Of a stretch of 64,000 bases of DNA, positions 46,008 through 46,846 are shown one piece after another; the stretch's first letter is position 1; each line of letters begins with the position of its first letter. Origin of the DNA: Escherichia coli (lineage in GTDB: Bacteria > Pseudomonadota > Gammaproteobacteria > Enterobacterales > Enterobacteriaceae); the NCBI RefSeq assembly GCF_044324785.1, contig NZ_CP172127.1, one strand, 5' to 3'. A model generated the notes under the pieces. That model was not told where the DNA came from. It did not search any database and saw nothing but the letters and a program-made list of their open reading frames with translations. Position numbers and translations under genes: made by a program.

Positions 46008-46846
46008 ATCTATGGCGCTACTGGCACCATAGTACAAAAAATGAGCGATGGTGCCACTGACACCACGGTATAAAAAATGAGCGATGGTGACGCTGGCACC
46101 ATAGTACAAAAAATAAGCGATGGTGCCACTGGCACCATAGTACAAAAAATGAGCGATGGTGCCACTGGCACCACGGTATAAAAAATGAGCGATGGTGCCA
46201 CTGGCACCACGGTACAAAAAATAAGCGATGGTGCCACTGGCACCACGGTATAAAAAATGAGCGATGGTGCCACTGGCACCACGGTACAAAAAATAAGCGA
46301 TGGTGCCACTGGCACCACGGTACAAAAAATAAGCGATGGTGCCACTGGCACCACGGTACAAAAAACGAACGATGGTGCCACTGGCACCATAGTACAAAAA
46401 ATAAGCGATGGTGCCACTGGCACCACGGTACAAAAAATAAGCGATGGTGCCACTGGCACCACGGTACAAAAAACGAACGATGGTGCCACTGGCACCATAG
46501 TACAAAAAATAAGCGATGGTGCCACTGGCACCATAGTACAAAAAATAAGCGATGGTGCCACTGGCACCACGGTACAAAAAATAAGCGATGGTGCCACTGG
46601 CACCATAGTACAAAAAATGAGCGATGGTGCCACTGGCACCACGGTATAAAAAATGAGCGATGGTGCCACTGGCACCACGGTACAAAAAATAAGCGATGGT
46701 GCCACTGGCACCATAGTACAAAAAATGAGCGATGGTGCCACTGGCACCACGGTATAAAAAATGAGCGATGGTGACGCTGGCACCATAGTACAAAAAATAA
46801 GCGATGGTGCCACTGGCACCATAGTATAAAAACGAACGCAATTCAT
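46008..46846. repeat. Array of about 23 tandem 36-bp direct repeats, each with the 15-bp palindrome GGTGCCACTGGCACC and an A-rich spacer
   Basis: Read directly: unit GCGATGGTGCCACTGGCACCACGGTACAAAAAATAA repeated head-to-tail with a few variant positions; the ORFs across it are periodic-translation artefacts. Confidence 0.95.

Follow-up and report, generated by a model that had tools for sequence, protein, structure and literature searches.

What does a long run of short palindromes do between two genes of a mobile element? The question is raised by a 64,000-nt stretch of Escherichia coli DNA (contig NZ_CP172127.1 of assembly GCF_044324785.1; hereafter the window, to which all coordinates refer unless a comparison locus is named). 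Within it, an ICE (integrative and conjugative element) of the SPI-7/pKLC102/ICEclc type carries an array of tandem 36-bp repeats between a 'replication protein' gene of the STY4528 family and a gene of the PFL_4669/AcaB family. A previous sequence-only reading of the window had described these repeats and considered them an iteron or centromere-like binding-site array. Judged from structure, conservation and co-variation, the array probably represents tandemly amplified bisS/parS-like loading sites for the BisD-type ParB clamp encoded by the ICE itself.

Tandem Repeats Finder identified the array as the dominant one of the window (46012-46832; period 36, 22.8 copies, 91% matches, 0% indels, score 1306), and its in-register layout consists of 23 units joined head to tail. 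The unit consensus ATAAGCGATGGTGCCACTGGCACCACGGTACAAAAA, a rotation of the one originally given, is composed of the parts ATAAGCGAT-GGTGCCACTGGCACC-ACGGTAC-AAAAA. Ten variants of this unit are present, following each other in the order ABCDEFGFHHIHHIDHDEFDECJ. The 15-mer palindrome GGTGSCANTGSCACC (GGTGCCA-C-TGGCACC) was found at 20 array sites with at most one mismatch, 19 of them being perfect, compared with 0.03 expected from shuffles, and in units of the 'CATAG' variant the dyad grows to 9-1-9 (ATGGTGCCA-C-TGGCACCAT). Coordinates, unit, palindrome and the copy number of about 23 given by the sequence-only reading were thereby confirmed, as was its statement that unique spacers are missing. 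A CRISPR (clustered regularly interspaced short palindromic repeats) array was rejected, the units abutting as variants of a single sequence. The claim that the stretch lacks coding potential is likewise reasonable. Long open reading frames (ORFs) do cross the array and some are labeled 'hypothetical protein' in RefSeq; their strand differs between genomes, which is consistent with non-coding DNA, and related arrays conserve the palindrome and not any peptide. RefSeq ORFs made solely of translated array, as in three comparison loci (L001 13955-14539 on the minus strand; L003 4916-5881 and L004 4995-5861 on the plus strand), are probably spurious gene calls.

The region is matched in 196 of 5,426 complete E. 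coli genomes. All four E. coli relatives that were fetched carry a 36-bp array at the same place, ranging from 12.1 to 25.6 copies, and their palindromes differ, the forms being GGTGCCA-C-TGGCACC, GGTGGCA-C-TGCCACC, GTTGCCA-G-TGGCAAC and GTTGGCA-G-TGCCAAC. Among further E. coli genomes, the length of the matched span changes in whole steps of 36 bp, corresponding to about 7 to 26 copies within lineages; the variation between isolates that had been suggested as a check does exist. With one genome scanned per species, another 80 loci were added, from Enterobacterales and from four Halomonadaceae, so that about 85 loci were compared overall. Nearly all of them share a palindrome of the family G-N-T-G-N-N-N-n-N-N-N-C-A-N-C, located 5-60 bp past the stop codon of the STY4528-family gene and phased usually by 36 bp, sometimes by 105-119 bp or 158 bp. 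Across this set at least 20 half-site variants occur, with the opposite arm changed to match, either perfectly or with no more than one mismatch. What is conserved across the loci, as far as their comparison tells, is the dyad symmetry. Pairing of the arms reaches the single central base, fitting a dimeric reader of double-stranded DNA and being unusable for a hairpin loop. Copy number in the species-scan loci, mostly from draft genomes, is 1-9, and on this ground the long array is a lineage-specific expansion and no requirement. The length that had been called unusual is indeed long but, with so few copies in many relatives, not essential.

The forms of the array vary further. A higher-order unit of 108 bp (3 x 36) was found in E. 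coli Br_112_kylling (L088, 10924-11790), where the palindrome GGTGGCA-G-TGCCACC is perfect only in every third 36-bp sub-unit (7 copies), the two sub-units between having decayed; the 105-119 bp phasing of L039, L059, L066 and the Xenorhabdus loci is like this form. In Halomonadaceae (L080 12247-12510, L081 12249-12321) the period is 58 bp, with GATGGTA-C-TACCATC or TATGGCA-C-TGCCATA, and the repeats stand after the PFL_4669 homologue, not before it. Several draft contigs stop inside or right after the array (e.g., L008 and L067), as would be expected if assembly broke at the repeat.

The most informative evidence on the protein partner comes from the way in which half-sites and protein residues change together. 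Residue rules were computed over 66 loci, using close-pair contrasts and the single-residue phi coefficient with controls. Among pairs of ICEs with STY4528 proteins at least 85% identical, an identical 12-amino acid (aa) ParB recognition motif was accompanied by the same half-site in 19 of 20 cases. The sole exception of this close-pair analysis (L085 vs L086) is accounted for by the substitution R211S, which accompanies a C-to-G change at half-site position 5 in three E. coli comparisons, namely this one and the window against L087 and against L088. Asparagine or aspartate at ParB residue 184 goes along with C at half-site position 2 (17 of 19 loci, compared with 0 of 47 otherwise). With arginine at residue 211, position 5 is a base other than G in 40 of 41 loci, while any other residue is found with G in 16 of 25. 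For positions 5-7, N186 coincides with ACA (9/9 loci), and H212, N210 or Y186 with CCC (7/7). As a control, residues of ParB, STY4528, PFL_4669 and DnaB were compared as single predictors of positions 2 and 5, the half-site positions flipping among close relatives; ParB residues 184, 211/215 and 186 performed best. In these alignments the palindrome tracks the start of the predicted ParB recognition helix (H184, S186) and the loop 210-212, which suggests, some exceptions aside (L031, L008, L059), a site specificity matched to the DNA-reading residues of ParB.

The ParB-family protein itself combines an N-domain carrying the motifs G93NTR96 and E135NEVR139 with a helix-turn-helix (HTH), a long acidic linker and a C-terminal domain. 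In an AlphaFold2 model of residues 1-310 (mean predicted local distance difference test score, pLDDT, 85.6) the HTH helices are predicted at 168-177 and 184-197, with S183, H184 and S186 opening the recognition helix. A Foldseek search with this model matched the structures of Noc, KorB and ParB bound to cytidine diphosphate and parS with a probability of 1.0; the sequence search against Protein Data Bank chains returned a weak match to the KorB N-domain alone. Comparison of the parB genes of the window and L085 revealed 95-100% nucleotide identity except for nt 450-600, where it falls to 51-71%. This patch encodes the predicted HTH, and the arrays of the two elements differ as well (GGTGCCA vs GTTGCCA half-sites, the L085 site being GTTGCCAGTGGCAAC). 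L087 and L088, in turn, combine a window-type ParB HTH with GGTG-type arrays, even though the ParB of L087 is just 85% identical overall. Among the Serratia loci, one HTH type is common to L070 and L037 (..TGACA) and another to L042 and L035 (GCTGCCA), a grouping that cuts across PFL_4669 similarity.

Two of these elements, L042 and L070, reside in the same strain, Serratia marcescens 106R (contig NZ_VFMJ01000001.1). Their STY4528 proteins are 96% and their PFL_4669 proteins 95% identical; their half-sites are GCTGCCA and GTTGACA, respectively, and 43 of 65 differences between their ParB proteins fall into alignment columns 149-263, the HTH block. This divergence suggests avoidance of cross-talk or incompatibility.

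A biochemically characterized counterpart is known from ICEclc. BisD of this element is a 550-aa ParB-like protein with the motifs G92NTR95 and E136NELR140. It forms foci and chromatin immunoprecipitation peaks at two bisS sites (GAGCTATCCCCnGGGGATAGCTC), hydrolyses cytidine triphosphate (CTP) with bisS DNA present, spreads about 50 kb along the transcription direction and, together with BisC, switches on 11 transfer promoters, while a candidate bisS-3 showed no BisD binding (Antar et al., NAR 2025, PMC12409273). BisC is a DUF2857 protein (PMC7423338). As a stand-in for the ICEclc BisD reference sequence, metagenome contigs were scanned for exact bisS, yielding 72 loci, 31 of which include a bisD homologue. 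These homologues are 44% identical to the window ParB within the N-terminal 300 aa. All 31 read GLGRHQ at 208-213, i.e., H212, next to an inner bisS half-site TATCCCC. The rule linking H212 to CCC had been derived without the bisS loci, and the agreement therefore represents an independent check.

Both elements belong to the same ICE family and share the same module (parA, bisD-like parB, the DUF2857 gene bisC, a STY4528/orf96323-like gene and ssb). Their sites are odd-centered perfect palindromes, 11-1-11 in ICEclc and 7-1-7 to 9-1-9 in the window, and their ParB proteins are equal in length, carry the CTP motifs and fit the half-site rule at position 212. As expected of a bisS-type system, the window has short perfect odd-centered palindromes, an encoded BisD-type protein and a DUF2857 partner nearby.

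The tandem arrangement finds its closest formal parallel elsewhere. The F plasmid centromere sopC consists of 43-bp repeats in 12 tandem copies, every copy containing a 7-bp inverted repeat to which SopB binds, and it directly follows sopB in the sopABC operon. Like sopC, the array is a series of spacer-free tandem repeats of tens of bp with one short dyad each for a ParB-family HTH protein, has copies beyond functional need, and belongs to an element encoding a ParA partner; its tandem dyads, together with the co-variation, are what would be expected of a sopC-type centromere. In contrast to F, about 10 genes and 5 kb separate the array from the upstream parB, and the window ParB has an extra activator-type C-terminal domain. 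A second relative is KorB of plasmid RK2, a ParB-family CTP clamp that reads an odd-centered 13-bp palindrome and acts on transcription at a distance together with a partner protein, from 12 dispersed single OB sites. KorB shares the clamp type and the odd-centered palindrome and is among the closest solved folds to the window ParB, but its OB sites are not tandem, and it represses where BisD activates. By analogy, the array resembles F sopC in form and ICEclc bisS in its proposed partner.

On this basis, we propose that each 36-bp unit offers one dyad site, which a ParB dimer would read via its HTH and the adjacent loop. Binding would close a CTP-dependent clamp, as for ICEclc BisD, and the clamp would then slide off, mainly downstream with transcription, into the PFL_4669-topB-ssb-pilus/type IV secretion system genes, where it may activate transfer genes together with the DUF2857 (BisC-type) protein. 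Array-bound ParB possibly also gives ParA a handle on the excised circle. With 23 sites in place of one or two, loading would be faster or the local ParB concentration higher, as with the 12 sopC repeats.

Several observations weigh against a ParB-loading array. The usefulness of 23 copies is unexplained. The bisS sites of ICEclc are two single sites 2 kb apart inside inrR and ssb, in contrast to the 23 tandem intergenic copies of the window. The half-sites of both elements are unrelated (TATCCCC vs GGTGCCA), and binding has been shown for the ICEclc sites and is proposed for those of the window. The residue rules have exceptions: L031 combines a GGCA-type ParB with a TGTGCCC array, L008 and L059 have N184 yet T at position 2, and the 4-aa core HNSS occurs with several inner triplets. 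Clade-specific half-site features were predicted equally well by every protein and are thus non-discriminating. A simple mutual-information analysis of half-site positions against alignment columns was dropped, being swamped by phylogeny to an extent that columns of the DnaB control scored as high. The evidence is correlative throughout, and owing to the phylogenetic non-independence of the loci, Fisher p-values are nominal. Finally, the PFL_4669/AcaB-type gene was swapped together with the array in E. coli, making a second binder possible.

A long-standing alternative regards the array as an iteron-type origin of vegetative replication (oriV), the STY4528-family protein binding the 36-bp repeats and initiating replication of the excised circle. 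Repeats at this position are in fact a described feature of the family, contrary to what the sequence-only reading had assumed. In PFGI-1, a 'putative oriV' immediately upstream of PFL_4669 comprises four 23-bp palindromes CTGAGTTCGGAATCCGAACTCAGT and, within the oriV region, four 46-bp direct repeats each with a 21-bp inverted repeat (Mavrodi et al., PMC2647930); iteron-like oriVs have been cited as common to ICEHin1056, pKLC102, SPI-7 and PAPI (Juhas et al., PMC2258188). The repeats of PFGI-1, pKLC102 and ICEHin1056 are direct repeats, each with an inverted repeat, at the same or a neighboring position by the PFL_4669 homologue, but differ from the array in period (46-58 vs 36 bp), copy number and sequence. 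Those of pKLC102, reportedly 16 copies of 57 bp, would be similar to the 58-bp repeats of Halomonadaceae. The shared position, the 'replication protein' gene directly in front of the array, the DnaB, TopB and SSB genes around it, and the approximately 30 copies per chromosome of pKLC102 are all in line with an origin. The 'oriV' label, however, was assigned in the accessible ICE-family papers from the sequence only, no functional test of these putative oriVs was found in this literature, and the pKLC102 origin was still 'postulated' in a 2020 review.

An origin read by the STY4528-family protein is nevertheless unlikely, because this protein stays nearly constant while the palindrome changes. 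Among the window (GGTGCCA), L085 (GTTGCCA) and L086 (GTTGGCA) it is 97-98% identical, all differences lying outside the conserved N-terminal half, although the palindromes differ at 2-3 positions and the whole unit differs. Its winged-helix region is invariant across genera of Enterobacterales, against a varying array, and an identity of at least 95% went along with the same half-site in 6 of 13 pairs only. Global identity was a poor predictor of array type for STY4528 and PFL_4669 alike. In respect to the DNA, the 36-bp period with 15-19-bp dyads is unlike classic iterons, which are directly repeated units of 17-22 bp. No DnaA box lies within 800 bp of the array; TTWTNCACA is matched no closer than at 43652 and 47673, and the 10 matches of the window compare with 5.9 expected, i.e., no enrichment. 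An AT-rich unwinding element is likewise missing: within the array and in its flanks the GC content is 0.41-0.50, and no block stands out sharply as AT-rich. Of the two functions originally offered for the array, the centromere-like one was therefore strengthened, given the co-variation with the DNA-reading residues of ParB and the loading of its homologue BisD at odd-centered palindromes, and the iteron or origin function was not.

A further point against an origin in the array is that the STY4528-family gene harbors a conserved palindrome set of its own. It comprises GTTCGGAWWCCGAAC-type sites at 45405-45419, 45504-45518 and 45548-45562 and TCACACACAGTGTGA at 45579-45593; almost all of the 85 loci possess 2-4 copies of GTTCGGAWWCCGAAC and one TCACACANTGTGTGA within this gene. 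The motif equals that of the PFGI-1 'oriV' palindrome and of ICEclc bisS-3, which is unbound by BisD. The sites fall into the part encoding a disordered linker of the protein (residues 208-291, pLDDT below 50). Its AlphaFold2 model was too poor for a fold search (pLDDT 52.8), displays a helix-helix-helix-strand-strand winged-helix pattern at 57-133, and Pfam gave sub-threshold HTH and DnaD_N hints only. With both the palindromes and the winged-helix region being conserved, the in-gene set is a possible partner for this winged helix and a better candidate than the array. By our own comparison, the layout would be similar to that of the lambda origin inside gene O.

About as improbable, in our judgment, is a function of the array as an operator for the PFL_4669/AcaB-family protein encoded downstream, be it for autoregulation or for a ParR/omega-like nucleoprotein complex. 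The explanation has some appeal. The protein matches AcaB, a DNA-binding activator with a ribbon-helix-helix (RHH)-like structure; RHH-like regulators often bind tandem repeats cooperatively; and the array lies in the promoter-proximal region of the gene. Moreover, array and gene are exchanged as one cassette in E. coli: the alleles of the window and of L085 (18115-18840) encode proteins that are 49% identical, compared with 93-100% for the backbone, and L005/L006 vs L007 show the same exchange pattern. Simple physical linkage would account for such an exchange as well. Identical or near-identical (94-97%) PFL_4669 proteins, on the other hand, accompany different half-sites (L070 vs L042, 95%; L019 vs L027, 94%; L085 vs L086, 100%). 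L070 and L037 share ..TGACA with PFL_4669 proteins only 68% identical and similar ParB HTHs, and half-site positions 2 and 5 are better predicted by the ParB residues than by any residue of PFL_4669. The related ICEclc gene product InrR, whose orthology is uncertain, was no direct activator when tested (PMC7423338).

Least probable is a structure-forming repeat without a dedicated protein, that is minus-strand terminator-like hairpins or cruciform- and slippage-prone DNA, neutrally expanded and kept palindromic by template switching. Every unit does score as such a minus-strand hairpin (24 found vs 1.5 expected), copy number shifts freely in 36-bp steps between isolates, and template switching is an established way in which quasi-palindromes are corrected, a mutational process that would give arms with compensating changes. 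Against this, the palindrome is retained at this place throughout a bacterial order and in Halomonadaceae, its complementarity continues to a one-base center of no use to a loop, and a neutral structure would not make particular residues of the ParB HTH co-vary with the site. A terminator array was rejected in particular, the T-run beginning 6 nt past the stem, which makes the terminators non-canonical, and the neighboring genes all being on the plus strand. An Rfam search of the array gave no match above threshold; weak MIR845_2 matches far below it are due to chance.

The ParB-loading assignment is embedded in a gene neighborhood (Table 1) that confirms the earlier description: the ParA, DnaB-type helicase and ParB-like genes upstream and the adjoining initiator-like gene were borne out by profile matches. 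The upstream module consists of parA, an SPI-7-type dnaB, the TIGR03764 ParB-family gene, a DUF2786 gene and the DUF2857 gene; dnaB and one other gene separate parA from parB, and the array follows 5.2 kb downstream of parB. Past the PFL_4669-family gene the order is topB, two STAXI RNA motifs, a DUF3577/STY4534 gene and ssb. The region parA-dnaB-parB-DUF2857-STY4528-PFL_4669 is a conserved maintenance/regulation module of the SPI-7/pKLC102/PFGI-1/ICEclc ICE family.

Table 1. Position of the repeat array and of the features discussed with it in the window
Feature	Coordinates	Strand	Remarks
ParA-family ATPase	35783..36661	+	Annotation in relatives, 'ParA family protein'; might be a motor partner should the array also act as centromere
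ParB-family (BisD-type) protein, 550 aa	39114..40766	+	TIGR03764, 378 bits; proposed array binder
DUF2857 protein, BisC-type partner	41484..42062	+	Pfam PF11198, E 9.8e-66; weak FlhD match; one gene from parB
STY4528-family 'replication protein'	44729..45994	+	NF040582 'STY4528 family pathogenicity island replication protein', 387 bits; directly upstream of array
Second palindrome set inside STY4528-family gene	45405..45593	.	Separate from array
36-bp unit array, 23x	46005..46832	.	Each unit a 15-19-bp odd-centered palindrome plus A6-tract spacer; proposed multiplied bisS/parS-like loading sites
PFL_4669/AcaB-family protein	46965..47645	+	TIGR03761; Pfam PF08900 AcaB, E 2.6e-74; directly downstream of array

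Extension of the ParB-loading assignment to the whole family leads to a proposition that we put forward tentatively, as a possibility rather than a probability. The repeats of the pKLC102/PAPI-1/PFGI-1/SPI-7/ICEclc family, labeled 'putative oriV' for 20 years, might be no origins but rapidly diversifying BisD-type loading arrays, co-evolving with the ParB reading head (184-186, 210-212) as a code that sets the activation or partition identity of each element, and the true origin, if there is any, might be the in-gene STY4528 palindromes. Such a code would explain the differing half-sites of the two ICEs in Serratia marcescens 106R, which would avoid incompatibility in this way. Site type, protein family and the presence of repeats at this place are known already. 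The accessible literature contains no description of the 36-bp tandem form or of its polymorphism in copy number, nor of a residue-base code or a reassignment of the 'oriV' repeats to ParB loading.

Members of this ICE family disseminate genes for virulence and resistance in E. coli, Salmonella, Klebsiella and Pseudomonas. If true, the ParB-loading assignment would correct a mis-assigned landmark (oriV) and extend the recently discovered BisD mechanism from ICEclc of Pseudomonas to the SPI-7-type ICEs of enterobacteria. It would also provide a naturally occurring set of variants in which protein and site are matched, covering at least 20 half-sites with specificity residues that can be identified, for the study of ParB recognition and ICE incompatibility. 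In practical terms, the 36-bp copy-number steps (7-26 units) may serve as a strain-typing marker, and annotation has to consider that the arrays often end short-read contigs and that RefSeq holds spurious ORFs across them.

Two observations were made beside the array. The interval between the STY4528 and PFL_4669 genes is a cargo hotspot with inserts of 1-3.8 kb, found in L019 (11215-14752), L054 (6550-9956) and L034 (11251-14695) as well as in L022, L025, L026, L028, L036, L038, L055, L057 and L075. The cargo includes arsRBCH (L019), a putative defence combination of a helicase and DUF2290 (L054), and an AAA ATPase with a Dcm methyltransferase (L034). In several of these loci one palindrome copy flanks the insert on each side (e.g., L019, L022, L034 and L038), while the upstream copy alone was found in L054, L055 and L057. 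Further downstream, between topB and the DUF3577/STY4534 gene, a 61-bp tandem repeat of 2.9 copies (49955-50261) corresponds to the two STAXI motifs (Rfam RF01728; 61.6 and 66.3 bits, gathering score 40.5); two E. coli relatives, L001 and L002, also carry this repeat.

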